Positions 1,778 through 31,862 of a stretch of 32,000 nucleotides of DNA are shown piece after piece. Source of the stretch: Candidatus Methylomirabilis limnetica. Its GTDB lineage: Bacteria > Methylomirabilota > Methylomirabilia > Methylomirabilales > Methylomirabilaceae. Location of the stretch: positions 25,454 to 57,453 of the forward strand of contig NZ_NVQC01000007.1 in the NCBI RefSeq assembly GCF_003044035.1, read 5' to 3'. Every line of letters begins with the position of its first letter. Position 1 is the stretch's first letter. The notes under the pieces are model-generated. The model made no database searches. It was not told where the DNA came from and worked only from the letters and a program-made list of their open reading frames with translations. A program made the translations under genes and the position numbers.

Positions 1778-2997
1778 ACGCCTCCATGTCTCGGGTCAAG
1801 GCTCCAGAGCCGTACAGAGAGCTTCGGCCGGCCTGGCGTCCCGTCATTTCGGAGGATGGCGGCCACGCGAACCGTAAGCCTTGATCCCGTCATCCGCCCA
1901 GCCGATTTGACGGAGAAGTTTTTCGCGCTCACTGTAGCCGTCTGACTGAGTTCTGCGATTATCTGCGTCGGGTTCGCCGGGCCCGACTGGCCTCCAGGCA
2001 CCACTGCGAATCCCTGTCGACCGCCCCCTAAGATGGCGCGGATAAGCTCAGTGAACTCCTGCGGGTTCTTAAATGGAAGTTGGGTACGCCGGTCGAGAAC
2101 GGCCTGGACCTCTGCCGCCGTCAGCCCGAGCGCCATCAAGACCTCGGAACTGGCGGTATTGACATTCACCATCCCGGAGGAATAGATCGACAAGTGCCTG
2201 GCGACTCCGAGGGATTCACCGTGCTGGAGCTCACGTTCCCATGGAGGTTGCGCCTCCAGTTCAGTCCGCCGCTGCGCGCCAGCGACGTTGCCGTACAGGA
2301 TCTCCGGGGTCATCCCTTTGATCAGGAGCAGTTCGTCGATAGTCTCGAAGTCCCCGTTCTTCGCCCGATATGGGCTGGGGAGGGACAGGTAGTAGTCGTC
2401 TTCGACGCCACTCAAGCGATGTAGAGTGTCGACGTCGCGCCAGTCCTGGATCGAATCGACGATGGTGGAGAGGAGCTTCTCATCCGTGACGCCGGAGTTA
2501 GAGAACAGCCGGCGAAGCATCGCATCGTATTGCGGGCTGATCTGCCCGTTCAGGGGAATCTTGCTCTCCTCATCCCTGACCGCCACCCGGTAATGCCCCC
2601 CGCCCAGCGCCACATTCTCATAGGCGGCCGGATTGGTACGCCAGTGCTCGTCCAGAGCGTCGTAGCTCTTCGAGTCTGGCGGGACATCACGGTCGGCATT
2701 GATGATCTCCGCCGCCGCCCGGTAGACACCGGCCTCCGCCAAGTAGTAGGCTTCCGCTTCCTGCCTGAAGTTGCCGGCCGCGGCCAGCTCTGTGCGCATC
2801 GAAAAGGTGAAGGCTGTGAACACGACACTCAGAAATGTCAGGATCCAAAGTACGACCACAAGCGCCAATCCACGCTCCGAATGAAGACGATGTTTCGAGT
2901 TTCGAGTTTCGAGTTTCGGGTAAGGGCGACCCGCCGGGTTGCCCCTATTGAAACGCCACACTCGAAACTCGAAACGCGAAACTCGAAACGTTTTCAT
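1774..2997 (-). CDS. gspK: Type II secretion minor pseudopilin GspK
   Basis: 407 aa with the GspK signature ERGLALVVVLWILTFLSVVF...AEAYYLAEAG and a C-terminal helix-hairpin-helix-like region. The first ~45 codons are encoded by heptamer palindrome A. The only in-frame starts upstream of the conserved RG-ALVVVL motif are ATG 2997 and GTG at codon 13. Confidence 0.8.
   Translation of the reverse strand: MKTFRVSRFEFRVWRFNRGNPAGRPYPKLETRNSKHRLHSERGLALVVVLWILTFLSVVFTAFTFSMRTELAAAGNFRQEAEAYYLAEAGVYRAAAEIINADRDVPPDSKSYDALDEHWRTNPAAYENVALGGGHYRVAVRDEESKIPLNGQISPQYDAMLRRLFSNSGVTDEKLLSTIVDSIQDWRDVDTLHRLSGVEDDYYLSLPSPYRAKNGDFETIDELLLIKGMTPEILYGNVAGAQRRTELEAQPPWERELQHGESLGVARHLSIYSSGMVNVNTASSEVLMALGLTAAEVQAVLDRRTQLPFKNPQEFTELIRAILGGGRQGFAVVPGGQSGPANPTQIIAELSQTATVSAKNFSVKSAGRMTGSRLTVRVAAILRNDGTPGRPKLSVRLWSLDPRHGGV
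2892..2988. repeat. Heptamer-palindrome element A: (GTTTCGA)x3+GTTTCGG ... (CTCGAAA)x4-like, ~28-bp near-perfect arms
   Basis: Left arm 2892-2919 and right arm 2961-2988 are reverse complements with 1-2 mismatches. The 41-nt loop contains its own hairpin GGGCGACCC/GGGTTGCCC (2924-2945). The element sits at the gspJ stop / gspK start. Confidence 0.85.
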
Positions 2998-3827
2998 AGC
3001 GTTCGCCCTACTTGCACTGGAAAGACCAGCGGCGGCAGGATCAACTCCCGGAGCCCAGACGATTTCGTCTGTCGAATCGTGAGCGTGAGCTCCACAGCCA
3101 ACGGCATACGATCAGAGCCCTTCAGGGCGCGCTGCCCCTGTGCAGGGACGAATCTCCGAGCTGGGGGCTGCGGCGTCTCGTCTTGGGAAGGATCCCAAGA
3201 ATCGCGCCAGGCGGGGGGAAGATTTTCCTCCGGCCTGCCCTCCGGCACCAGGTACCGAAAGCGCGCCTGCAACGCTCGTTCATCGAGCGGTTTGACTGAA
3301 TCCTCGAACGAGGCGGATGCCTGAGTAGCAAGAGGGTAGCTTCCTGTGGCCACCAGTCCCCGACCAGACTCGACGGCATAGGCCACGATCCTGACCATGT
3401 GACTGAATGGTTCGGCCCCGTAGCTCTGTGGAAGGGTAGCAAACTTGAGGGAGTCCGACTTGCCATGAAAGGCGATGACATCCTTATCCTGCTCTTTCAC
3501 ACGCAAAGGGTGTATCATCGTAAGGTCTCGTGCGAGGGTCTCGACAAGGGTGCGATTGCGCTGGCTCTCTTCCGCCCGCGCCTCCCCGCTCTCCCACGAC
3601 TTGGCTCCAACCTGGATCGCACCAAGTACGGCGACGAAGATAAGCGACAGGATCGTCAGCGAGATCAAGACCTCGATCAAGGTGAAGCCGTGCGGAGTGC
3701 GGAGTTCCAGGTTTCGGGTTTCGGGTTTCGGGTTTCGGGTTTCGGGAGTCCTGCTCTTGTCAGAAACCTGGAACGTGGAACTCGAAACTAGAAACTCGAA
3801 ACTCGAAACTTGCTTACTGCACCACAC
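2994..3827 (-). CDS. gspJ: Type II secretion minor pseudopilin GspJ-like
   Basis: 277 aa. Prepilin motif PHG|FTLIEVLISLTILSLIFVAV. Size and position between gspI and gspK fit. The only in-frame start is GTG 3827, which gives an unusually long ~46-aa leader encoded by heptamer palindrome B. Confidence 0.7.
   Translation of the reverse strand: MWCSKQVSSFEFLVSSSTFQVSDKSRTPETRNPKPETRNLELRTPHGFTLIEVLISLTILSLIFVAVLGAIQVGAKSWESGEARAEESQRNRTLVETLARDLTMIHPLRVKEQDKDVIAFHGKSDSLKFATLPQSYGAEPFSHMVRIVAYAVESGRGLVATGSYPLATQASASFEDSVKPLDERALQARFRYLVPEGRPEENLPPAWRDSWDPSQDETPQPPARRFVPAQGQRALKGSDRMPLAVELTLTIRQTKSSGLRELILPPLVFPVQVGRTL
3705..3808. repeat. Heptamer-palindrome element B: (GTTTCGG)x5 ... (CTCGAAA/CTAGAAA)x4
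   Basis: Five perfect tandem GTTTCGG at 3711-3745 and four tandem CTCGAAA-type heptads at 3781-3808. There is also a perfect 11-bp inverted repeat, TTCCAGGTTTC 3705-3715 / GAAACCTGGAA 3763-3773. The element sits at the gspI stop / gspJ start. Confidence 0.85.
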
Positions 3828-4299
3828 GCGTCTGACCCAACTTCTTCTCGTCCACCATCATCCTCAGGGTCTGAAGGTTCACGGATTTCTCTCCACGGCG
3901 GCTAGGCCACGTGACGCGGACCTGGACACTGTAGAGCCGACCGGGGAGTTCTTCCTCCTGTTCGAGCGGCTGGACCTCAGAGGCCCAACGGAATCCCCCA
4001 CCGAACTCCCCTGTTTCGGCCGAGCCTGTGAGGTTCCGCATTACGGCGACCTCGGCCATTTTCTGCCGAGCCAGCAGGACCGCCTGAGTGTAATCTTCGG
4101 ACGCCTTCGCAGAGCGAACCCCAGCGGCTAGCAGCTCCATGGCCAAGGCGAACCCGATACCGAGAATGGCCAAGGCAACAATGACCTCGAGCAGCGTGAA
4201 GCCATGCTCCGTACGGCGTGCGGAGCATGGCAAATCCCCCCGTGCCCCCCTTTTGTAAAGGGGGGGGTGGGGGGATTTCGCGCTTCGCACTATGTTCAC
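3814..4299 (-). CDS. gspI: Type II secretion minor pseudopilin GspI-like
   Basis: 161 aa. Prepilin motif EHG|FTLLEVIVALAILGIGFALAM. GTG 4299 forms a GTGA overlap with the gspH stop. The leader codons (SPHPPLYKRGARGDLP) come from a G/C-tract REP. An alternative in-frame TTG (GD-L-PC) would give a 10-aa leader. Confidence 0.7.
   Translation of the reverse strand: MNIVRSAKSPHPPLYKRGARGDLPCSARRTEHGFTLLEVIVALAILGIGFALAMELLAAGVRSAKASEDYTQAVLLARQKMAEVAVMRNLTGSAETGEFGGGFRWASEVQPLEQEEELPGRLYSVQVRVTWPSRRGEKSVNLQTLRMMVDEKKLGQTRVVQ
4202..4278. repeat. Palindromic REP-like elements inside the gspI leader region
   Basis: Perfect 10-bp inverted repeat CCATGCTCCG 4202-4211 / CGGAGCATGG 4221-4230. Nested G/C hairpin AAATCCCCCC 4232-4241 / GGGGGGATTT 4269-4278, with inner stem CCCCCCTTT / AAAGGGGGG. 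Confidence 0.7.
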
Positions 4300-4850
4300 G
4301 CATTCTCTGCGGTGCTGATGCGAATCAACCCAACCGATGGATCCACAACAATTCGATAGGCTCGCCCCTTCTCGTCAGAGAGGTCAATCGATCCACCCGT
4401 CGAGCTCCCCTGCGGAAAGAAGGCAATGGCGCCACGCTCATCTGACCGAAGGGGGCCGGTGGTGAGGAGAACGGACTTCAGGCTCACACCAGGCGGAAGA
4501 GAACGGACCCGAGCCTGCCGCATCTGAACCTGCTGTTCCGGGTCCTCAACCGTTGGAACCTGGTCGATGCCGCTCAGGCGGCCGACAATCCAGTCGGGTC
4601 CCCTCAACCAGTAGCGATTGGTCTGCCGGTCAAGCACCACCTCCACTACATCCTGGTTGGCGATCGCCTGCGTTCTGGCAAACCGGCACAGGGCGGCGAT
4701 ATCCCTCGCCGAGGCCTTGAGTCGAGCCTGCCCGAATGGGTGGCTGAAGGCCGGTGCGACCAGCACGGTCACCAGCGTGAGAATGAACAGCACCACGGTA
4801 AGTTCGAGGAGCGTGAAGCCCCTCGTACCCCGCACTGGTCTATTGTTCAA
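4296..4850 (-). CDS. gspH: Type II secretion minor pseudopilin GspH-like
   Basis: 184 aa. Leader MNNRPVRGTRG|FTLLELTVVLFILTLV. Position between gspG and gspI fits. Confidence 0.7.
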   Translation of the reverse strand: MNNRPVRGTRGFTLLELTVVLFILTLVTVLVAPAFSHPFGQARLKASARDIAALCRFARTQAIANQDVVEVVLDRQTNRYWLRGPDWIVGRLSGIDQVPTVEDPEQQVQMRQARVRSLPPGVSLKSVLLTTGPLRSDERGAIAFFPQGSSTGGSIDLSDEKGRAYRIVVDPSVGLIRISTAENA

Positions 4851-5340
4851 CCCGCTCTCCTGCCCGTTTGATGCCCGCCCAGCTCACGATGTCCTGATTC
4901 TCCCCATCGCCACCCGCCACGCCATCACCGCCATAGGAGATGATATCGTAATCGCCATGCTCCCCCGGAGACTTATAGACAAAGGGGTGCACCCAGGGAT
5001 CTAACGGGATCTCCTGCTTCTTGAGATAGGGCCCATCCCAGTTCTCAACCGCGCCCGGATTGACAAGCATCGCCTTCAGCCCTTCCTCGCTGGTCGGATA
5101 CCGGCCGACGTCGAGGCGAAAGTTGTCTAAGGCGGCGCCGAACAGCTCGATCTGGGCCTGAGCCGCCGCCTGCTTACCCTTCCCCACCCTGCCGAACAGC
5201 TTCGGCCCAACGAGAGCGGCCAACAGGCCGATGATGATGATGACCACCAGCAGCTCGATGAGGGTGAAGCCGGCCTGATTACGGTGCAAGGTCCTGGCCC
5301 TCGCCTTTTGCCATACCTGGATATCTTCACATCGCTGCAT
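4840..5340 (-). CDS. gspG: Type II secretion major pseudopilin GspG
   Basis: AG|FTLIELLVVIIIIGLLAALVGPKLFG...AQIELFGAALDNFRLDVGRYPTSEEGL..WDGPYLKK..PLDPW..PFVYKSPGEHGDYDIISYGGDG is canonical GspG. The start is uncertain. Candidates are ATG 5340, GTG 5346 (AAGGAG 6 nt upstream), and TTG 5289, which would give the classical short leader MHRNQAG|F. Confidence 0.85.
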   Translation of the reverse strand: MQRCEDIQVWQKARARTLHRNQAGFTLIELLVVIIIIGLLAALVGPKLFGRVGKGKQAAAQAQIELFGAALDNFRLDVGRYPTSEEGLKAMLVNPGAVENWDGPYLKKQEIPLDPWVHPFVYKSPGEHGDYDIISYGGDGVAGGDGENQDIVSWAGIKRAGERVEQ

Positions 5341-5420
5341 TCCCACGCTCAGCTCCTTTGCTCCATGCCCCATCTGTACGTATGTTCGCACCCCGCACCC
5401 CCTCCCTGCCTCTCCTCCCT

Positions 5421-5478
5421 TGTAGGGGCAGGCCTTGTGCCTGCCCAGAGCGGGCGACCACCAGGGTCGCCCCTACGT
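5421..5478. repeat. REP-like multi-hairpin element in the gspF-gspG spacer
   Basis: Stems GGGCAGGC/GCCTGCCC and GGGCGACC/GGTCGCCC, enclosed by GTAGGGG...CCCCTAC. This generates the artefactual ORF 5284..5532. Confidence 0.7.
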
Positions 5479-5512: not shown

Positions 5513-6739
5513 TTAGAGCGGAAGCTCATTGATACTAAATATCGCCAGCAACATCGACATCACGATGAATCCAACAATGAGGCCTAGGGACAGGATCAGG
5601 ACCGGCTCCAGCAGCGAGGTCAAGCGCTTGACCGTTCGCCGCACCCGGTCATCGTAGGTGTCGGCCACCTTGATCAGCATCTCCTCCAGCTTTCCAGTCT
5701 CTTCTCCCACCCTGGCCATATGGATGGAAAAGGAGGGAAAGGCACCAGTGGCCCGCAGCGGGCCGCTGATTCCCTCGCCACGCTTCACCCCCTCTTGCAA
5801 CCTGGACATGGCGCCGGCGATCACCCGATTGGTGACCGTCTCTTTGACGATAGAAACGGCGGCGAGCACCGGGACCCCGCTTTGGAGAAGCGTCCCGAAC
5901 GTCCTGGCAAAGCGGGAGACCTCGATCTCCTGAATCAGGCCTCCCAGTAACGGCAAGGCCAGCTTCCACTGGTCCCACTGCATCTTCCCCTGCTCAGTCT
6001 GTAGATAGGCTCGAAGACCACCCCAGCCAATGACGATCAGCCCCACAAACACCCACCAGTAGCCGGTCGTGAACGTGCTGATCGCGAGCAGCATCCTGGT
6101 CGGCAGTGGCATGAGCTGCTTGGTATCGGCAAAGATCTGGGCAAACCGTGGAATCACGAAGTTCATCATGACCACCACGGCACCGCCACCCACAAGGAGC
6201 AGCAGAATCGGATAGATGAGGGCTGAGGTGATCTCGTCCCGGATCGTCTTGGACCGCTCCATAAACCCGGCCAGCCGCGAAAGGATCACCTCTAACACGC
6301 CGCTCGCCTCCCCCGCCTTAACCATATTGACGTACAGCCGGGAGAAAAGTCGTGGATGCTTAGCCAAGCTGTCGGCGAATGAACTACCCGCCTGGATGTC
6401 GGCCAGGACGCCACGGAGAATAGACCGGAACCGTTGATTGTCGGTCAGGTCCAGCAGGATCGACAGGCTCCGGTCCAGCTCCATCCCAGCCTCAAGCAAT
6501 GTGGCAAGTTGTTGCGTGAAGGCCAGGACGTCTTGGGCGGACGGTCCCCTCGCAAATCGGCTCTGGACCCCAGCGAGACCAGGCTTGGCCTCCACCATCG
6601 CACCGGCCTGACCAATCTTGATCGGGTAGTAGCCGTTGGTCTGGAGCCAAACCACGACCGCCCGTTCGTCGGAAGCCTCCATGCTCCCCTGGATGATCTT
6701 GGCGGCACGATCAGTGGCGGTGTATTGAAATGTCCCCAT
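5513..6739 (-). CDS. gspF: Type II secretion inner-membrane platform protein GspF
   Basis: 408 aa with two T2SSF-type repeats and three TM segments. The N-terminus MGTFQYTATDRAAKIIQGSMEA is typical of GspF/PilC. Confidence 0.9.
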   Translation of the reverse strand: MGTFQYTATDRAAKIIQGSMEASDERAVVVWLQTNGYYPIKIGQAGAMVEAKPGLAGVQSRFARGPSAQDVLAFTQQLATLLEAGMELDRSLSILLDLTDNQRFRSILRGVLADIQAGSSFADSLAKHPRLFSRLYVNMVKAGEASGVLEVILSRLAGFMERSKTIRDEITSALIYPILLLLVGGGAVVVMMNFVIPRFAQIFADTKQLMPLPTRMLLAISTFTTGYWWVFVGLIVIGWGGLRAYLQTEQGKMQWDQWKLALPLLGGLIQEIEVSRFARTFGTLLQSGVPVLAAVSIVKETVTNRVIAGAMSRLQEGVKRGEGISGPLRATGAFPSFSIHMARVGEETGKLEEMLIKVADTYDDRVRRTVKRLTSLLEPVLILSLGLIVGFIVMSMLLAIFSINELPL

Positions 6740-7343: not shown

Positions 7344-9077
7344 TTACGCCTCCTCTTTGGTGACCCGAAGCAGATCCTCCAGGGTCGTAACCCCCAACTC
7401 AACGTTCCGCCAGCCATCCTCCCAGAGCGTCTTCATGCCAAACTGGAGCGCCTTCTGCCGAATCGTGTTAGAGTCGGCCTTTTCCAGGATCAACCGTTGA
7501 ATCTCTTCGCTGATTACCAAAAACTCGTAGATGCCGCTGCGACCACGGTATCCGGTAAAGTTACACGCGGCGCATCCCTTACCCCGAAATACCTGCATCG
7601 ATCCATCGACCTCGGTCTTGATCCCCATTTTTCGGACCGCAGCCGAATCCAACCGGTACGACTCCCGGCACTCATGGCAGATAACGCGGACCAAGCGCTG
7701 AGCCAGGACCGCCACCAGGACGCTCGAAACCAGGTAGTTTTCGATACCCATGTCCAGAAGCCTCGTGATGGCGCCGGGCGCGTCATTCGTATGCAGGGTG
7801 CTGAACACCAGATGCCCGGTCAGCGCCGAATGGATGGCGATGTCTGCGGTCTCCGCATCGCGGATCTCCCCAACCATGATGATGTCTGGATCCTGGCGGA
7901 CGATAGAGCGCAGGCCGTTCGCGAAGGTCAGACCGATCTTGGGCTTGACGTGGATCTGGTTGACTCCTTGGAGCTGATACTCAACCGGGTCCTCGATGGT
8001 GATGATCTTTTTGTCGGCGGAGTTGATCTCACTCAGCGCCGTGTACAAGGTGGTCGTCTTCCCGCTCCCGGTCGGCCCCGTCACCAGGATCATGCCATGC
8101 GGCTTTCTAATCAGCCGCTGGAATTGTAAGCGAATATCTTCAGGCATGCCCATATCCCCGAGGCTCAGGAGGAGGCTACTGCGATCCAGGATTCGCATCA
8201 CGACGCTTTCGCCGTGCAAGGTGGGAATCGTGGAGACCCGGAGGTCCAGGTCCTTCCCCAGGATCTGGAGCCTGATCCGACCGTCCTGTGGAAGCCGTCG
8301 CTCGGCGATGTTCATCTTGGCCATGATCTTGACACGGGAGATCACGGCCCTCTGGAGCCGCTTGGGAGGGGACTCGTGGTCCACCAGCACGCCATCCACC
8401 CGGTAGCGGATTCGAAGCGTATCCTCGAACGGTTCGATGTGGATATCGCTGGCGCGGGCCTCCACCGCCCTGGTGATCACGAGATTCACAAGCTGGATAA
8501 CAGGGGCCTCGGAGGCCAGATCCCGCAGATGATCGATATCCTCACGATCATCGCCTGACGCCCCACCCTCCTCCTCGCTATACCCCTTGACGATCTTCTC
8601 GATCGTCGCCTGGCCATCGCCATAATACTGATCGATCGCATCGAGGATCTCCCGATCCTGGGCTAAACAGACTATGATAGCGAGGCCGGTGCTAAGTCGA
8701 AGGTCGTCTAGCGTATACGGATCAGCCAGGTCGCCCATGGCGACGGTCAACGCGCCATCTTTGATCTCAATCGGGAAGACCTTGTGCTCCCGCAGGTACT
8801 TCGAGGAGGGACGATTACGAATCAGAACAGGTGTAATCGAGAGGGCTGCGAGCGATAGATAGGGAACTGCAAATTGCAGGGCAAGAGCTTTTGCGACGTC
8901 TTCTTCTGACACATACCCAAGCTCTACAAGGGTTTCCCCAAGCCGTTTACCGACCTCCCGCTGGTGAGCTAACCCTCGTTGGAGTTGGTCCCGAGCAACC
9001 AAGCCCTCACGGATCAGGATTTCGCCAAGCGGTTCGCGCACCCCACTCCACTGCCCACTGCCCATAGTGCGATCCAT
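7344..9077 (-). CDS. gspE: Type II secretion ATPase GspE
   Basis: 577 aa. N-terminal MshEN/GspE_N-like domain, Walker A GPTGSGKTTTLY, Asp and His boxes, and the tetracysteine motif CHEC...CAAC. Confidence 0.92.
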   Translation of the reverse strand: MDRTMGSGQWSGVREPLGEILIREGLVARDQLQRGLAHQREVGKRLGETLVELGYVSEEDVAKALALQFAVPYLSLAALSITPVLIRNRPSSKYLREHKVFPIEIKDGALTVAMGDLADPYTLDDLRLSTGLAIIVCLAQDREILDAIDQYYGDGQATIEKIVKGYSEEEGGASGDDREDIDHLRDLASEAPVIQLVNLVITRAVEARASDIHIEPFEDTLRIRYRVDGVLVDHESPPKRLQRAVISRVKIMAKMNIAERRLPQDGRIRLQILGKDLDLRVSTIPTLHGESVVMRILDRSSLLLSLGDMGMPEDIRLQFQRLIRKPHGMILVTGPTGSGKTTTLYTALSEINSADKKIITIEDPVEYQLQGVNQIHVKPKIGLTFANGLRSIVRQDPDIIMVGEIRDAETADIAIHSALTGHLVFSTLHTNDAPGAITRLLDMGIENYLVSSVLVAVLAQRLVRVICHECRESYRLDSAAVRKMGIKTEVDGSMQVFRGKGCAACNFTGYRGRSGIYEFLVISEEIQRLILEKADSNTIRQKALQFGMKTLWEDGWRNVELGVTTLEDLLRVTKEEA

Positions 9078-9257: not shown

Positions 9258-9525
9258 GACCCCCACAGGGGATTCCCCGAGGGCGCCCCACTCCTATTTA
9301 CAACGTAGCCTGTTCCTGAGTTCCGATGATGCGAGGGGCGGCAATAACAATGAGCGATCCTTCCTCAGCGGGCATCCGGTGCTTTTCTGGATTCCCCGGT
9401 CAAGCCGGGAAATAACAAGTATAGTAAACGGTGTCGTCATTATTCTAAGGCCGTTAAGAACTTCCTGAAGATTATCGCGTGGACTCAGTCAATGCAGTGA
9501 GGAACCTTTGACAGGAGGGTGAAAA

Positions 9526-9666
9526 ATGGGGGAATCGGGAAAGACAGCAGAGCTTATCGATCGTGAGGCGAAGGAGTCCAAAGCCGCCTACGAGCGGCCT
9601 ATCCTCAGACGGGTGGGGTGGCTTCGGGATGTGACCGCTCAGGCGAGCATAGATACTATTGAGTGA
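9526..9666 (+). CDS. RiPP precursor peptide A (46 aa), lasso-type leader, predicted core QASIDTIE
   Basis: Not in the ORF track. GGAGGG lies 6 nt upstream of the ATG. MGESGKTAELIDREAKESKAAYERPILRRVGWLRDVTA|QASIDTIE matches Y-x2-P-x-L-x3-G-x5-T-x. Confidence 0.75.
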   Translation: MGESGKTAELIDREAKESKAAYERPILRRVGWLRDVTAQASIDTIE

Positions 9667-9691
9667 GGAACCTTTGACGGGAGGGTAAAAA

Positions 9692-9826
9692 ATGGGGGAA
9701 TCGGGAAAGACAGCAGAGCTTATCGATCGTGAGGCGAAGGAGTCCAAAGCCCCCTACCAGCGTCCCACCCTCAGGCGAGTGGGGTGGCTTCGGGATGTGA
9801 CCGCTAACGGAAGCACTGATACTTAG
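9692..9826 (+). CDS. RiPP precursor peptide B (44 aa), predicted core NGSTDT
   Basis: Tandem paralogue of A, offset 166 nt, same RBS. MGESGKTAELIDREAKESKAPYQRPTLRRVGWLRDVTA|NGSTDT. The first 20 codons are identical to A. Confidence 0.75.
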   Translation: MGESGKTAELIDREAKESKAPYQRPTLRRVGWLRDVTANGSTDT

Positions 9827-9898: not shown

Positions 9899-11272
9899 AT
9901 GGACGTAGTAGGGGCTGCGCTGAGCAGGCGCCTGCGTTCGTTCTTTCGATCGCGGCGAAAGCTGCAGAAACTACAAGACTCCTTCCACAATCTGGGATGG
10001 TACGCCCTCACTGCCTGGTCACGCTGGAAGCTTAAGGGATTCCAGGGGCCGGTGATTGCTATTACCGGCACCAAAGGGAAGACTACGACCACCCGCCTGA
10101 TCTCCAGGATTTATTCGGATGCCGGTTATCGGGTCGGGATGGCCTGTAGCGGGGGGGTCTACGTCAATGGCATCTGCGTCCTAAGTGGGTCATTCTCGGG
10201 TGTGGACGGTCCCCTCCGGGCCTATCGGGCCGGAGGGCGCGATCTTCTCGTGCTGGAAACCGCCCATGGCTCGATCCAGCGGTATGGATTCGGCTTCCCT
10301 GACTGTAACGTCGCGATCTTCACCAATATTACCGATGGCCACCTGGGTGAGCTAGGCATCGAAACCCTGGAGGAGATGCTGGCCCTGAAATGGAGGTTGG
10401 CTTCCAGGGTCCGTTCAGGGGGGACTATCATTCTAAACGCTGATGATCCTCTTCTGTCCTCCCTTCGCCCTCCTCGATGTGTCGAAGCGGTCCACCTGAG
10501 CCTTGCCAGATCTCCTGCGCATGGCGGCGCTGATCTCGGTGCGCCTCTGTATCGATACGATTATCATGGAGCGGTGGTAAAGGAGTGTGGCGGATGCCCT
10601 TCCATCGTTGCCGAAATCTCTGATGCACCTTTGCTTTGTAAGGGCTTTGCTCCGTATAACGCCTACAACCTGCTGGCGGCCATTGCCTCCGTAGAGGCCA
10701 TGCGTCCATTCCTGCCAGTTTCACAGGAGTCGCTTCTCAAGAGTCTCATGTCTTTCGGGTCGGTCCCGGATGATAACCCTGGGCATTTCAATCTGTTCGA
10801 GGGTGCATGGGGAAGGGTGCTCCTTTTGGCGGGGAGCAACAGGGACAGTTACCAGAGGGATGCCCAGGCTCTTGCCAGAATACGGGTCTGCCCCCCTTTT
10901 CCTGTGGGACGCATCATCGGGGTTATCACGGGCATAGGGATGCAATCAACGAGTTACATCCGTGAACTTGCCGGGATCGCCGCTTCCGTGTGTGATGAGA
11001 TCATCATCCGGGAACCCCTGCCGCGTTACAGGCATGTGAGGGCCCCGGGAGAGATCTCATCTATCCTGAAGTCAGCGGCGTTGGAGTCTGGCATCCCTTA
11101 TCACGCCATTCATGTTTGGAGCGAGACATCTGACCTGATCAGGGATCTCGTTCTCCCCAACAGGGAGGCAAACCGTTTCGTTGCTGTCTTTTCTGCATTT
11201 GCCCAGGAGCCGATCATTGATCTCTGCCGGCGCTTGGGTGACCTGGGTTCCAGCTCTAACCGGTGGTCGTGA
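9899..11272 (+). CDS. Stand-alone Mur ligase family protein, cyanophycin synthetase M-domain-like
   Basis: 457 aa. P-loop ITGTKGKTTTTRLI, then GGVYVNG...LVLETAHGSIQRYGFGF..CNVAIFTNITDGHLG...IILNADDPLL parallels the CphA Mur-ligase-like domain. There is no ATP-grasp domain. Confidence 0.75.
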   Translation: MDVVGAALSRRLRSFFRSRRKLQKLQDSFHNLGWYALTAWSRWKLKGFQGPVIAITGTKGKTTTTRLISRIYSDAGYRVGMACSGGVYVNGICVLSGSFSGVDGPLRAYRAGGRDLLVLETAHGSIQRYGFGFPDCNVAIFTNITDGHLGELGIETLEEMLALKWRLASRVRSGGTIILNADDPLLSSLRPPRCVEAVHLSLARSPAHGGADLGAPLYRYDYHGAVVKECGGCPSIVAEISDAPLLCKGFAPYNAYNLLAAIASVEAMRPFLPVSQESLLKSLMSFGSVPDDNPGHFNLFEGAWGRVLLLAGSNRDSYQRDAQALARIRVCPPFPVGRIIGVITGIGMQSTSYIRELAGIAASVCDEIIIREPLPRYRHVRAPGEISSILKSAALESGIPYHAIHVWSETSDLIRDLVLPNREANRFVAVFSAFAQEPIIDLCRRLGDLGSSSNRWS

Positions 11273-18204: not shown

Positions 18205-18363
18205 GTAACCATTCAGTTACGGGTGGAAAAATCTCCCCTAGCCCCTCTTTTCCAAAGAGGGGGACTACCCGTTTCCCCCTTTGAAGAAGGGGGATTAAGG
18301 GGGATTTTATAAAAACCTACCACATTTTATTTAATGATTTCCCCCCTATCACTGAATGGTTAC
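18205..18363. mobile_element. MITE copy 1 (159 bp, 13-bp perfect TIRs, 8-bp TSD AATTGAGA)
   Basis: TIR GTAACCATTCAGT 18205-18217 / ACTGAATGGTTAC 18351-18363. Direct repeats AATTGAGA lie at 18197-18204 and 18364-18371. The interior is nearly identical to the reverse complement of 31695-31862. Confidence 0.85.
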
Positions 18364-23354: not shown

Positions 23355-23834
23355 TCAATACTCGCCCTGCGCCTTGATGATCAGGAAGATGCGCTCCACC
23401 TCAGCCACATCATTGTTCAGTAGCGGCAGCAATGCGCCCTTAAGCGTTACCTCCTCGGCGATGGCGAAGTCGTTCTGCTCCGGCTCGTGCCAGTTGATGA
23501 GGTGGACTTTCTCCGTCACCTTGCCCGCCTCGGTCTTCACGTCTACACCGTAGCGCAGCAGCTTGTAGACGGCCTGGTTGTTGCCGTAGAGTGTGCGGCT
23601 GTGACTGTCCGCCTCGGTGCGCAGGTCGTAGAGCGCCTTGGAAATCTGCGCCGGGCTGTAGCGGCACTTAGTCAGCCATGCGGCGAGCAAACCTTCATCG
23701 ATGTTACTGTTGCCGTCGCGGTCGGTCCAGTCACCGAGGTAGCGGTAGCGCAGTTCATCGCGGAACAGGGCGATGACCCGATTCTGCGTGGCGCGCTCGG
23801 GCTGGCCGACGGCGTTCACTTCACGACCTCCCAA
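23355..23834 (-). pseudogene. hsdR: Type I restriction enzyme HsdR remnant (N-terminal ~135 aa joined to a short C-terminal tail)
   Basis: GQPERATQNRVIALFRDELRYRYLGDWTDRDGNSNIDEGLL...VHLINWHEPEQNDFAIAEEVTLKG matches the HsdR N-terminal domain. The ORF is 159 aa versus ~1000 aa for the intact enzyme, and the helicase motifs are absent. Confidence 0.65.
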
Positions 23835-24937
23835 TAGCCGCCTTTTGCCGAGCCGATTCGTCGCACGCGGTTCTGCTGCCGGAGTTGCCTGAGATTTCGC
23901 TCGATGGATCGGTCCGTAATGCCGAGCATGCGTGCCATCTCCGGGATCGTGGCATCGGGATTCGCAATCAGATACGCGAGGATTTTCCCCGACGTTTTCC
24001 CCGACGTTTCACCGACCTTCTCCCCCAACAGCCGATGGGCCTCCTTCTCGCCCAACGCAGCACTCAGGTGCTCGGGGTTGGCTTTGAACGTCAGCATCAA
24101 GCCGGAAAGGCTGGCGTCGTAGATCGGCGCCTCGATGCCATGCTCGCGACACTCGCGCGCAATCTTCTCGATGCCGCGTCCCCAAGACTCGATGTAGCCC
24201 GCACGGAAGAAGGCGTTGGCCAGCAGGGGATTGAAGGGGTGCGACGGGTGCTTGCCCCTCAGCTTCTCCAGCGTCCAGCTCTGCGGCAACTGACCTGGAT
24301 TCCACAACACGATCTGGTGCTCGTAGACGCTGATTTGGATCGGGATGGCACTGCTGTAGTCCTTATGCACTACCGCATTCAGCAGGGCCTCGCGCAACGC
24401 GCCGTCGGGGAACAGAAAGGTCTCCAGCCACTGCACACCTTGGTAGCTGATATAGGCCTTTAGGTACTTCTGGTGAAGAATCTCCAGCGTTTTCTCGACC
24501 TGCTCGAACAGGTTTCCGCGCATCTCGTCCTGGTAACGCAGATCGTCGTCGGTAACGAAGAAGCCGATCTTGATCCAGGCCCCGCCGACGTAGTGCTGCG
24601 GCCGCTCGGAGAACAACAGGTAGGCGGCACGCTTCAGATACTGGCCCTCGGTCAGTTCCAGGTTGTCCAGAACGGCCTCACGGCTGTCGTTCAACACCGC
24701 TTCGTCCATACGACCGCTGCGTACCGCTCGCTGCGCAAACAGCCGGAGGGCGTCCTGACTGCAGTCTGCGGCATGGAAGGTCGGTTCGGGAACGCCGTCC
24801 CAATGCAGGCCGCGCTTCCTAAGCAGGAACCGCTCGAGGGCCGCGCCCTTGAGGGCCTGGTTGGTACTGCCGCTCCGATAATGGTATTCGCCTCTGAGGC
24901 TGATCGGGTTATGGAATGGAGAATGGAGAGTGGAGAA
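23816..24937 (-). pseudogene. AlbA_2/HATPase_c_4-type putative DNA-binding ATPase-like protein, 5'-truncated
   Basis: ALLNAVVHKDYSS..PIQISVYEHQIVLWNPG...HPFNPLLANAFFRAGYIESWGRGIEKI plus a C-terminal wHTH. The frame stays open upstream of the track ATG (ISLRGEYHYRSGSTNQALKGAALERFLLRKRGLHWDGVP...) up to a stop at 24938-24940, where the cassette repeat begins. The N-terminal AlbA_2 domain is missing. Confidence 0.7.
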
Positions 24938-24956
24938 TTATTGGGCATGGGAGTAA

Positions 24957-25404
24957 AATTGAAAGTGGAGAATGGAGAGTGGAGAATTATTGAGCATGCT
25001 TGTCTTTCCTCGATGTTTTGACGATCGAGACCAGCAGCTTGACCAGTTCTTCGCTGTCTGTTCGGATCGATGTAAAGCTCTGCTCAGCGATGTACTCGGC
25101 TTGGTGCAGCAACTCCAGCCAGTAGAGAGTTTCGTTGGCTTCCTTGAGCGCGATGTTCATCTTGTGGGTAAAGTCTGGTTTGCTCTCGGCATGTTCCGCC
25201 TCGCGTACCAGCGCACCAATTGCGGTCCCGCTGCGTAACACCTGCTTGGACAGCACAAACTCCTTCTTCTCGTCCTGCAAATATTTCGCCAACCTTACCA
25301 CGCGAAGCGCAAACGCAAACGACTTCGCCTTTACAACGTTTTCCTTCATTCTCAATTTCCTATTCCCTCATTCTCCATTCTCCATTTTCAATTCTCAATT
25401 TATT
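24957..25404 (-). mobile_element. Four-helix-bundle gene cassette 1 bounded by ~33-bp imperfect inverted repeats (GGAGAATGGAGA-type)
   Basis: The left flank AATTGAAAGTGGAGAATGGAGAGTGGAGAATTATT resembles the reverse complement of the right flank ...CATTCTCCATTCTCCATTTTCAATTCTCAATTTATT. The block repeats at 26108-26555 with 5-6 mismatches by eye. Confidence 0.5.
24987..25349 (-). CDS. Four-helix-bundle protein (23S rRNA intervening-sequence protein / Avd family)
   Basis: MKENVVKAKSFAFALRVVRLAKYLQDEKKEFVLSKQVLRSGTAIGALVREAEHAESKPDFTHKMNIALKEANETLYWLELL is the hallmark of this family. The start is taken at ATG 25349. Confidence 0.85.
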   Translation of the reverse strand: MKENVVKAKSFAFALRVVRLAKYLQDEKKEFVLSKQVLRSGTAIGALVREAEHAESKPDFTHKMNIALKEANETLYWLELLHQAEYIAEQSFTSIRTDSEELVKLLVSIVKTSRKDKHAQ

Positions 25405-25414
25405 AACCGGTCGT

Positions 25415-25801
25415 CTACACTTTGCGCACGGGCCCGGGGTACCGGGCCAGTTGCGCGTCGCCGGTGAGGAGGATGATGCCCTCGCTTAAGGCCTGGGCCA
25501 GCAGCAGGCGGTCGAAGGGATCTTTGTGCAGTGGGGGCAAGCTGTCGATGTTTACCGCGTGCTGACTGGTGATGGGAAGCTCGGTATAGCCGTTGTCGAG
25601 CAAACCCCGGCGCAGCAGGCGTGGCTCGACGCGGAAGTCTTCCCGCCCCAGGGTATTCTTGATGGCGATCTCCCACAGGCTGGCGGCGCTAAAGAGGAGC
25701 TCGTTGCGCGGGTCGTTCAGGAGCTTACGCGCCGCCGCGGAGAGCCGCTCGGGCTGGCCGGCCGCCCAAAGCAGGATCTGAGTGTCCAGCAAGAGCTTCA
25801 C
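25415..25801 (-). CDS. vapC: Type II toxin VapC (PIN domain ribonuclease)
   Basis: 128 aa. LLLDTQILLW...LFSAASLWEIAIK...HKDPFDRLLLAQA..GIILLTGD carries the PIN acidic residues. GTGA overlap with the antitoxin. Confidence 0.85.
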   Translation of the reverse strand: MKLLLDTQILLWAAGQPERLSAAARKLLNDPRNELLFSAASLWEIAIKNTLGREDFRVEPRLLRRGLLDNGYTELPITSQHAVNIDSLPPLHKDPFDRLLLAQALSEGIILLTGDAQLARYPGPVRKV

Positions 25802-26037
25802 GCCCCGCTCCCGAACAGGGCCGCGATCTCGGCTTCGCCCATGCTGTCAAAATCTTCGGGTACGGCGATCTCGCCCGCCAGGAAGCCCAGCCGTTTCGGC
25901 GCCACTGGGGTATCCAGTGCCGCAACCTTCACCAGTGGCTTGCCCGCCTTGGCGATCACGAACGCTTCGCCCTTGACCGCTTGATCGACCAGCTTCGAGA
26001 GCTGGGTCTTGGCTTCATGGATGTTGACGGTAACCAT
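25798..26037 (-). CDS. vapB: Type II antitoxin (Phd/YefM-fold) partner of VapC
   Basis: MVTVNIHEAKTQLSKLVDQAVKGEAFVIAKAGKPLVKV... ATG 26037 is preceded by GGAGG at 5 nt. The track's TTG 26049 start would include the RBS. Confidence 0.8.
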   Translation of the reverse strand: MVTVNIHEAKTQLSKLVDQAVKGEAFVIAKAGKPLVKVAALDTPVAPKRLGFLAGEIAVPEDFDSMGEAEIAALFGSGA

Positions 26038-26050
26038 ATCGACCTCCAAA

Positions 26051-26072
26051 GACTAAGTTAATAAGACTAAGT
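26051..26072 (-). promoter_or_regulatory. Candidate vapBC operator: direct repeats GACTAAGT x2
   Basis: GACTAAGT occurs at 26051-26058 and 26065-26072 (14-nt period), immediately upstream of the vapB RBS in an AT-rich stretch. Confidence 0.3.
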
Positions 26073-26107
26073 CTACTCCGTCGCCCTCCCACCGTCAAGG
26101 AGAGTAC

Positions 26108-26555
26108 AATTGAGAGTGGAGAATGGAGAGTGGAGAATTATTTGGCATGCTTGTCTTTCCTTGATGTTTTGACGATCTAGACCAGCAGCTTGACCAGTTC
26201 TTCGCTGTCTGTTCGGATCGATGTAAAGCTCTGCTCAGCGATGTACTCGGCTTGGTGCAGCAACTCCAGCCAGTAGAGAGTTTCGTTGGCTTCCTTGAGC
26301 GCGATGTTCATCTTGTGGGTAAAGTCTGGTTTGCTCTCGGCATGTTCCGCCTCGCGTACCAGCGCACCAATTGCGGTCCCGCTACGTAACACCTGCTTGG
26401 ACAGCACAAACTCCTTCTTCTCGTCCTGCAAATATTTCGCCAACCTTACCACGCGAAGCGCAAACGCAAACGACTTCGCCTTTACAACGTTTTCCTTCAT
26501 TCTCAATTTCCTATTCCCTCATTCTCCATTCTCCATTTTCAATTCTCAATTTATT
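26108..26555 (-). mobile_element. Four-helix-bundle gene cassette 2 (direct repeat of cassette 1, offset 1151 bp)
   Basis: It has the same inverted-repeat flanks as cassette 1. By hand alignment, 24965-25404 versus 26116-26555 differ at 5 positions. Confidence 0.5.
26177..26500 (-). CDS. Four-helix-bundle protein copy 2, C-terminally shortened by a TCG>TAG nonsense change
   Basis: The protein is identical to copy 1 through ...EELVKLLV. Copy 1 reads GATCGAGACC where copy 2 reads GATCTAGACC, a premature stop that removes the last 13 aa. Confidence 0.75.
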   Translation of the reverse strand: MKENVVKAKSFAFALRVVRLAKYLQDEKKEFVLSKQVLRSGTAIGALVREAEHAESKPDFTHKMNIALKEANETLYWLELLHQAEYIAEQSFTSIRTDSEELVKLLV

Positions 26556-26777
26556 TACCACTCGTAGCGCAAACGCAAACGACTTGTCTTTGACAATATT
26601 GTCCTTCATTCTCAATTTCCTATTCCCTCATTCTCCATTCTCCATTTTCAATTCTCAATTTATTTACCACTCGTAGCGCAAACGCAAACGACTTGTCTTT
26701 GACAATATTGTCCTTCATTCTCAATTTCCTATTCCCTCATTCTCCATTCTCCATTTTCAATTCTCAATTTTCAATTC
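26498..26777. repeat. Tandem 109-bp repeat (about 2.5 units): cassette right-flank IR plus the 5' stump of a divergent four-helix-bundle ORF
   Basis: The unit landmark CAT (ATG on the minus strand) recurs at 26498, 26607 and 26716. Each stump encodes MKDNIVKDKSFAFALRVV and then runs into the IR. Confidence 0.85.
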
Positions 26778-27038
26778 CCCATGCCACACGCCAACGATCC
26801 AGACCACCTGCCCCTTGACGCGATAGAAGAAGCGGTACGGCGCAATTACAACTTCACGCTGAGGAAGGTCGGGAAACTCCGGGATCGCCCGGCCTGATTC
26901 CGGAAATTTCACGAGTCTTTTGAGAACAGTCTCCGCACGTCGGCGGAACCGCAATGCGGCGTCGGGTTTGTCGCGGCGAATATACGCGAGAGCAGAAAGA
27001 AATTGGGTTCGGGCGGAGGGGGTGAAGAGGATTTTCAC
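26757..27038 (-). CDS. RelE/ParE family type II toxin
   Basis: 93 aa. MKILFTPSARTQFLSALAYIRRDKPDAALRFRRRAETVLKRLVKFPESGRAIPE...YRFFYRV.GQVVWIVGVWHG. The last ~6 codons and the stop lie inside the 109-bp repeat array. Confidence 0.8.
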   Translation of the reverse strand: MKILFTPSARTQFLSALAYIRRDKPDAALRFRRRAETVLKRLVKFPESGRAIPEFPDLPQREVVIAPYRFFYRVKGQVVWIVGVWHGELKIEN

Positions 27039-31694: not shown

Positions 31695-31862
31695 GTAACC
31701 ATTCAGTGATGCGCGGGAAAATCATTAAAGAAAATGTGGTATTTTTTATAAAATCCCCCTTAATCCCCCTTAATCCCCCTTTTTCAAAGGGGGAAACGGT
31801 TAGTCCCCCTCTTTGGAAAAGAGGGGCTAGGGGAGATTTTCCACCCGTAACTGAATGGTTAC
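31695..31862. mobile_element. MITE copy 2 (168 bp, inverted relative to copy 1, 8-bp TSD TTACCGGG)
   Basis: TIR GTAACCATTCAGT 31695-31707 / ACTGAATGGTTAC 31850-31862. Direct repeats TTACCGGG lie at 31687-31694 and 31863-31870. One extra GGGGGATTAA unit accounts for the length difference from copy 1. Confidence 0.85.

Follow-up and report, generated by a model that had tools for sequence, protein, structure and literature searches.

Heptad elements at two pseudopilin gene junctions

We analyzed a 32,000-nt stretch of the Candidatus Methylomirabilis limnetica genome (contig NZ_NVQC01000007.1, positions 25,454 to 57,453; hereafter, the window), in which two palindromic elements made of tandem heptanucleotide repeats occupy gene junctions of a type II secretion operon. 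GspK homologs place the organism in NC10, within Ca. Methylomirabilis (phylum Methylomirabilota). The operon, with its pseudopilin part, lies on the minus strand of the window and comprises gspE (7344-9077), gspF (5513-6739), gspG (4840-5391), gspH (4296-4850), gspI (3814-4299), gspJ (2994-3827), gspK (1774-2997) and a PilM/N/GspL-like gene (341-1777). The class III signal peptide motif (Gly at -1, a hydrophobic segment and Glu at +5) was recognized by matches to the N_methyl domain PF07963 on GspG, GspH, GspI and GspJ, the last of which also carries the T2SSJ domain. GspK contains T2SSK domains and reads RG/LALVVV at its cleavage site (indicated by the slash), without the Glu, as is usual for GspK proteins.

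Searching the window for the heptad pattern GTTTCGRGTTTCGR with at most one mismatch returned 13 matches, as compared to 0.01 expected from shuffles, and all of them fall within 2892-2989 and 3711-3809. Tandem Repeats Finder delineated period-7 arrays at 2892-2918 (3.9 copies), 2960-2989 (4.3 copies), 3710-3746 (5.3 copies) and 3779-3810 (4.6 copies). On the mRNA strand, which is the minus strand for all features described here, both elements share the layout (GTTTCGA)n, loop, (YCGAAAC)n. Element 1, at gspJ/gspK, consists of a promoter-proximal arm of about four GTTTCGA heptads translated as FRVSRFEFRV (2960-2989), a loop that includes the GC-rich palindrome GGGCGACCCGCCGGGTTGCCC (loop 2919-2959; palindrome 2924-2944), and a distal arm of four CTCGAAA heptads translated as PKLETRNSK (2892-2918); its arms, 38 nt apart, show 93% complementarity over 30 nt. 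Element 2, at gspI/gspJ, consists of a promoter-proximal arm of about 4.5 GTTTCGA/GTTTCTA heptads (3779-3810), a loop (3747-3778) and a distal arm of five CCGAAAC heptads translated as PETRNPKPETRN (3708-3746). An earlier reading of this DNA, made from the letters alone (the sequence-only reading), had described these heptad arrays correctly, except that element 2 extends over 3708-3810 and not, as given there, over 3705-3808.

The same reading had located both elements on overlapping gene junctions and had seen no alternative start downstream of them, and the coordinates agree on both counts. Element 1 begins 5 nt past the ATGA (2994-2997) in which the gspJ stop TGA (2994-2996) overlaps the gspK start ATG (2995-2997), and element 2 begins 4 nt past the gspI stop TAA (3814-3816). 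The sole in-frame canonical start of gspJ is the GTG at 3825-3827, and gspJ thereby overlaps the end of gspI by 14 nt. Between either element and the cleavage-site glycine, the frame is devoid of ATG, GTG and TTG codons; the nearest starts are 31 and 43 codons upstream of the cleavage site for gspK, the former being a GTG in the loop, and 47 codons upstream for gspJ. The predicted GspK leader spans 43 codons (2869-2997) and ends in ...HSERG, followed by the mature sequence LALVVVLW from 2868, whereas the predicted GspJ leader spans 47 codons (3687-3827), from the GTG to ...LRTPHG, followed by mature FTLIEV.

Reading-frame conservation across NC10 loci

For comparison, NC10 loci (numbered with the prefix L) were collected from genomes (15 loci) and metagenomes (about 34), and their pseudopilin genes were anchored by tblastn of the mature proteins. 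Because loci were picked by similarity to mature GspK only, the frame result reported below is not an effect of ascertainment. In orthologs lacking an insert, gspK starts at the ATGA overlap and encodes an 8-amino acid (aa) leader (MKRGGERG/LAL), with 20 nt separating the gspJ stop from the first mature codon; the remaining loci of the Methylomirabilis clade all bear an insert at gspJ/gspK. The ATGA overlap at this junction was kept in 33 of 36 distinct orthologous junctions. Spacers between gspJ and the mature gspK sequence measured 20, 35, 38, 50, 53, 56, 62, 71, 77, 86, 92, 101, 107, 110, 113, 125, 128, 134 and 143 nt, i.e., all 19 distinct spacings, including those of L161 and Ca. Methylomirabilis oxyfera, equal 2 modulo 3 and are in frame with the overlapping start.

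The gspG/H, H/I, I/J and J/K junctions together provided 88 distinct inserted sequences from about 50 NC10 loci. In 85 of them, the true frame could be traced without interruption to a start close to the stop of the preceding gene, as opposed to 19 and 20 for the two other frames (Fisher p = 2e-34). The three exceptions include the H/I junction of L010, where a start precedes the mature end by 7 codons. In most inserted junctions, a canonical start within 15 codons of the mature N-terminus was absent. The total number of heptads modulo 3 varies between junctions, with the non-heptad lengths co-varying such that the sum stays in frame. That the arrays are free of stops in three frames was discarded as independent evidence, since this follows arithmetically whenever at least three heptads are read in one frame.

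The pattern recurs in the reference genome of M. oxyfera (L163; FP565575, 2127729-2148799), where gspJ/gspK carries (GCGTCAA)4 and (CCCACAC)4, and gspI/gspJ carries (GTGTTAA)n and (CTCAACA)4, both in frame. Within the latter junction, a GTGCCAA unit interrupts the GTGTTAA array precisely where another GTGTTAA would have put a TAA in frame. In the annotation deposited for this organism, GspK begins past the cleavage glycine and lacks the leader, whose predicted sequence includes MKKRQASSVKRQVFGPTPHTPHPTPSFFGECG.

The long leaders are hydrophilic (grand average of hydropathy about -0.9), with a median net charge of +3 to +5 and hydrophobic runs of at most five residues, properties that a class III signal peptide extended at its N-terminus into the cytoplasm should have. 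Their positive charge conforms to that signal peptide class, and their lengths do not: against the about 6-30 aa of its short leaders, we count 43 and 47 aa in the window, up to 101 aa in orthologs and up to 236 aa in the fusions described below. Taken together, the start shared with uninserted orthologs and the frame kept across inserted junctions strongly support the prediction that the heptad repeats of the window are translated, as the sequence-only reading had proposed, into prepilin leaders of 43-47 aa.

Period-7 arrays, PF05635 genes and other junction elements

Scanning 346 kb of NC10 DNA centered on the gsp operon yielded 105 arrays of period 7, as compared to at most five for any other period from 5 to 11. 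The gspH-K junctions account for 89 of the 105 arrays, and about nine more lie just upstream of mature gspG, as read from their coordinates; where the sequence of these gspG arrays was read (L007, L095 and L103), they are in frame from an ATGA overlap with gspF. The few others are mostly beside the PF05635 genes of the window, and arrays are rare in the ordinary intergenic DNA of the same loci. Outgroup loci from Nitrospirota, Desulfobacterota and other contigs of metagenome-assembled genomes or metagenomes contained 68 period-7 arrays, vs at most ten for any other period from 5 to 11. Here, 16 of 240 prepilin motifs had an array within 120 nt upstream, and for ten of these 16 genes the only in-frame start lies upstream of the array. 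Thus, the phenomenon is not limited to NC10. Arrays of up to ~190 nt also surround gsp genes on the Desulfonema magnum chromosome (L046, 2285-10947) and in Desulfococcaceae HSG8 (L067, 1223-8901); they include CTCGAAA/CTTGAAA units like those of the window and mostly contain stops, and only one lies upstream of a prepilin motif.

In three loci, a complete PF05635 domain, i.e. the four-helix-bundle domain of 23S rRNA intervening-sequence proteins (IVPs), is encoded in frame within the GspG leader (L010:2950-3882, L098:~400-1386 and L102:~400-1341). No stop or start separates the IVP domain from the G/FTLIE motif, and in L010 and L102 the PF05635, N_methyl and T2SSG domains were all found in one open reading frame (ORF). 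The IVP-GspG fusion is represented by at least 17 protein clusters (P0121-P0136 and P0138) sharing 66-93% identity, with leaders of 114-236 aa whose linkers are heptad-array translations of variable length. When an IVP-GspG fusion was searched against a library of representatives at 50% identity, none of the 150 matches listed spanned both domains; among the long N-termini read there, P0396 has a partial IVP, and the others resembled neither IVPs nor heptad-encoded peptides. The fusion cassettes consist, in this order, of a 5' GT-rich array, a Shine-Dalgarno (SD) sequence with the IVP ORF, and a complementary 3' array. L102, for instance, has GTTCCAG arrays, the IVP sequence and then CCGGAAC/TCGAAAC/CCGAAAC arrays, the unit types being those of the window elements.

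The window has PF05635 genes of its own at 24987-25355 and ~26141-26506 (minus strand), flanked by GGAGAAT/ATTCTCC arrays. An IVP gene 89% identical to that of the window is found between hsdS and hsdR on ten contigs (L164-L173; L164:2483-2900), where (GGAGAAT)n lies inside the end of hsdS and gives the SD sequence and ATG for the IVP gene, and (ATTCTCC)n lies inside the start of hsdR. The two window elements have no ORF inside; as the same types of array flank IVP genes, they are probably ORF-less relatives, and their descent from IVP cassettes may be inferred from the shared array types. Collectively, these arrangements suggest array-bounded cassettes at operon junctions, read through by the neighboring genes, to be a general type. 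The GspG leader of the window (VGMQRCEDIQVWQKARARTLHRNQAG followed by FTLIE; 5269-5346) resembles the N-terminus of PF05635 by inspection over its first ~15 residues, while Pfam gives no PF05635 match; we read its start as a putative remnant of an IVP gene. In the region of the two window IVP genes (24914-26782), a PIN/Phd toxin-antitoxin pair lies between them, the 5' end of an IVP gene together with its array occurs in three 109-nt tandem copies (26446-26770), and a truncated HSDR_N fragment is found nearby (23355-23834).

The GC-rich palindrome in the loop of element 1 can be written as GGGCGACC(N5-6)GGTCGCCC. The window has two copies (2924-2944 and 5452-5472), and others occur in L009, L010, L081, L091, L092, L095, L096, L104, L110 and L112, at various junctions and in both orientations. 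Throughout the sampled DNA, regular-expression matches were confined to gsp junction elements or their edge, and we therefore rejected GGGCGACC...GGTCGCCC as a genome-wide repetitive extragenic palindrome. A third junction element, at gspH/gspI (4232-4278, minus strand), was missed by the sequence-only reading and belongs to another family, being a C-run/G-run palindrome (AAATCCCCCC...GGGGGGATTT). It sits in the ORF that opens at GTG 4297-4299 in a GTGA overlap with the gspH stop, and resembles the core of two ~170-nt elements elsewhere in the window (18205-18363 and 31695-31862), which have terminal inverted repeats (GTAACCATTCAGT...) and AAGGGGGATT repeats inside. Palindromes of this C-run/G-run type occupy other pseudopilin junctions in L004, L081 and L083. 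The GspI leader further contains a near-perfect 15-bp palindrome (4201-4231; GCCATGCTCCGTACG / CGTGCGGAGCATGGC) with an ATG offset by one base from the frame of GFTLLEV; starts in the gspI frame are the GTG at 4297-4299 and a TTG that precedes the mature end by 11 codons. Elsewhere in the window, a Mur-ligase-domain gene (9899-11272) is preceded by a 166-nt tandem duplication (9496-9805; 1.9 copies with 93% identity).

Probable cassettes in prepilin leaders and competing explanations

We consider it probable that the inserts are fast-turnover, array-bounded cassettes that are tolerated because they reside in a leader likely to be removed by prepilin peptidase. Such cassettes are built from tandem heptanucleotide arrays, usually a GT-rich array, a variable loop and the complement downstream, and are found where the pseudopilin genes of type II secretion encode their leaders, in NC10 and some outgroup loci. 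Translation would begin at the codon overlapping or abutting the upstream stop and run through the arrays; the leader, usually of 6-15 aa, would thereby reach 40-100 aa or more and be hydrophilic and positively charged. Cleavage by prepilin peptidase after the conserved glycine would leave the mature pseudopilin unchanged, such that the removable leader could act as a permissive site in an operon without intergenic space. Slippage and recombination would then vary the arrays, with selection presumably purging variants that break the frame, and pairing of the start codon in the stem might make initiation depend on the upstream ribosome. As to the unit length, we speculate that a 7-nt unit (1 modulo 3) would allow one or two slippage steps to restore the frame after insertion.

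Several points weigh against tolerated leader cassettes. No PF05635 gene was detected by tblastn in any gspH-K junction, and no prepilin peptidase gene was seen in the sampled DNA, which is centered on the gsp operon and not a whole-genome census. Both the long precursors and their cleavage are deduced from nucleotide sequence. In addition, the scarcity of arrays in ordinary intergenic DNA is left unexplained by a purely neutral 'safe harbor', which needs to be complemented by some form of targeting, local generation or positive selection.

With a lower probability, the inserts could represent an undescribed class of mobile 'operon-junction' elements with heptad-array ends and PF05635 proteins as cargo or agent, whose stop-free ends slip into frame and whose products are removed by host processing. 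Array ends open in three frames would let slippage by one or two units regain the frame of the following host gene, so that an element could live in coupled operons, be it in pseudopilin leaders or at the hsdS/hsdR junction; removal by prepilin peptidase would then be the protein-level counterpart of RNase III acting on rRNA intervening sequences. With regard to the features of miniature inverted-repeat transposable elements, inverted arms are present, and comparison of inserted with uninserted junctions revealed no evident direct duplication. We know of no description of heptad arrays as cassette ends.

That the inserts serve as regulatory mRNA hairpins, with a stem that hides the start codon in coupled translation or is targeted by RNase III and thereby sets subunit ratios, appears unlikely. 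Folding in silico did bear out that both window elements can form hairpins in the mRNA: element 1 reached -59.9 kcal/mol (z = -7.6) and element 2 -46.9 kcal/mol (z = -4.0) on the mRNA strand, with none of 200 shuffles as good in either case, and both predicted stems pair in the start codons (AUG/GUG). Furthermore, arm pairs of differing heptad families are usually complementary. Across the 88 junctions, however, the predicted structure of inserts was only marginally stronger (-0.386 kcal/mol per nt) than that of segments drawn at random from the same loci (-0.355), the antisense strand being slightly favored (p = 0.02). In element 2, every heptad on the mRNA strand contains one A x C mismatch, and the opposite strand gives the more stable fold (-65.7 kcal/mol). 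At several junctions, an array stands alone or is paired with one that is not its complement (L001, L083 and M. oxyfera gspJ/gspK). A hairpin alone, moreover, needs no conservation of frame. The conserved features are period 7 and the reading frame, not the hairpin. No terminator or promoter site was found in 2600-4500, which argues that the hairpins are not intrinsic terminators; scans of the whole window retrieved no Rfam family at the gathering threshold and no tRNA or tmRNA.

We regard it as improbable that the extension itself is functional, either as a leader delaying or controlling processing or as a cytoplasmic peptide or domain released by cleavage. In its favor, IVP-GspG fusions are kept over their range of sequence divergence, cleavage of which would free a four-helix-bundle domain, and leaders keep their positive net charge. 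The peptide, however, differs between close strains: strains that share 98% identity in the first 240 nt of mature gspK have different inserts at every junction. Likewise, the gspJ/gspK loop of the window occurs in reverse orientation in L010 and L096, with the same frame and a different peptide, indicating that the leader peptide sequence itself is not conserved. Uninserted alleles in related lineages also argue against a function of the extension.

The phase-variation switch proposed in the sequence-only reading, in which gain or loss of a single heptad would toggle the minor pseudopilins as in opa and pilC of Neisseria, is quite improbable in light of the alleles sampled. Repeat units of a length not divisible by 3, placed within the ORF and in its leader-coding region, are the classical architecture for phase variation, and array copy number differs between near-identical strains, as in contingency loci. 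The arrays do turn over quickly, the closest relatives of the window GspK having a 35-nt junction with two GTGCGAA units vs the 125-nt palindrome of the window. Contingency loci also have ON and OFF alleles coexisting in natural populations. Here, none of the 88 inserted junctions, nor L161-L163, is out of frame in the assembled sequences, which does not support a switch that is regularly OFF. Where near-identical strains differ in length, they do so by multiples of 3; the difference is exactly 21 nt, i.e. three heptads, in three pairs (L086 vs L105/L107, 71 vs 50 nt; L093 vs L090, 122 vs 101 nt; L110 vs L161, 56 vs 35 nt). The comparison of copy number across related strains that the sequence-only reading had suggested thus revealed variable lengths, yet every allele in frame. 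Gene calls beginning 'MALVVV' were considered as OFF alleles and rejected as choices of the caller, since L161 and L162 have in-frame leaders of 13 aa. The arrays are also short (3-6 units), and the whole secretion system would probably fail if any one of these genes were lost.

Finally, it is hardly credible that the elements are intergenic, with GspJ and GspK initiating at unrecognized non-canonical codons beyond the arrays, a result that the sequence-only reading had named, together with invariant copy number, as overturning its proposal: gene callers often start GspK at the Met/Leu after the glycine, and the TTG at this position in the window has a GGAG 6 nt before it, but the codon is TTG, TTA, CTG, ATG, ATC or ATT depending on the locus, such that a start there is not conserved, nor is the GGAG; the 'MALVVV' calls have in-frame starts upstream, and conservation of the frame, which strongly disfavors a downstream start, would be left unexplained.

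Four known systems invite comparison. Heptanucleotide repeats termed short tandemly repeated repetitive (STRR) sequences occur in cyanobacteria. TAACTGA heptamer direct repeats are found in Beggiatoaceae, cyanobacteria and Bacteroidetes, mostly in intergenic positions just upstream of starts, and a forward tandem array of them has stops in all three frames (PMC4679880); an excess of period 7 in bacteria was noted earlier (PMC4679880, PMC4692102). The arrays described here resemble TAACTGA/STRR repeats in being tandem 7-nt units near starts that are strain-specific, with indels distinguishing close strains, and that arise by no known mechanism. Unlike those direct repeats, for which no link to pilins is reported, they form inverted pairs, are stop-free and lie within ORFs, in frame, in prepilin leaders, downstream of the only usable start rather than upstream of it. 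A second parallel is provided by the Rickettsia palindromic elements (RPEs), reportedly inserted in frame in protein-coding genes (Ogata et al., 2000). In both cases, a palindromic repeat is tolerated in coding sequence with the ORF preserved and would be translated with the host protein; RPEs, however, form fixed families of 100-150 bp and stay in the mature protein, whereas the present arrays are variable and their leader is expected to be cut. Homology to RPE families is not to be expected, organism and sequences being unrelated.

The phase-variable leader repeats of Neisseria (CTCTT in opa, poly-G in pilC) share with our arrays a repeat that is not a multiple of 3 in a region coding for a signal peptide; they are commonly out of frame, and here no OFF allele was seen. 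Lastly, 23S rRNA intervening sequences, which may carry a PF05635 gene, are removed by RNase III. They likewise are cassettes bounded by inverted repeats, with or without a PF05635 ORF, at a site removed by host processing, yet at the RNA level, while removal here would occur at the protein level through prepilin peptidase. None of the four systems combines translated, frame-conserved heptad arrays with prepilin leaders, and our literature searches retrieved no description of heptamer repeats in prepilin leaders or in NC10.

If correct, tolerated leader cassettes would imply prepilin signal peptides far longer than the textbook 6-30 aa, some even carrying a folded domain. This would bear on substrate recognition by prepilin peptidase as well as on the annotation of pseudopilin genes, many of which appear to be currently truncated by gene callers. 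Enrichment cultures and omics data reportedly exist for M. oxyfera. The arrays would also tie heptamer repeats to the abundant PF05635 proteins, for which we know of no established function, and would provide a testable idea of why the unit has 7 nt. The mobile-element reading, if true, would additionally give a reason for period 7 in bacterial heptamer repeats. If the inserts are tolerated leader cassettes, the pseudopilin junctions of NC10 would offer a clear comparative case of bacterial heptamer repeats that are translated and held in frame by selection.

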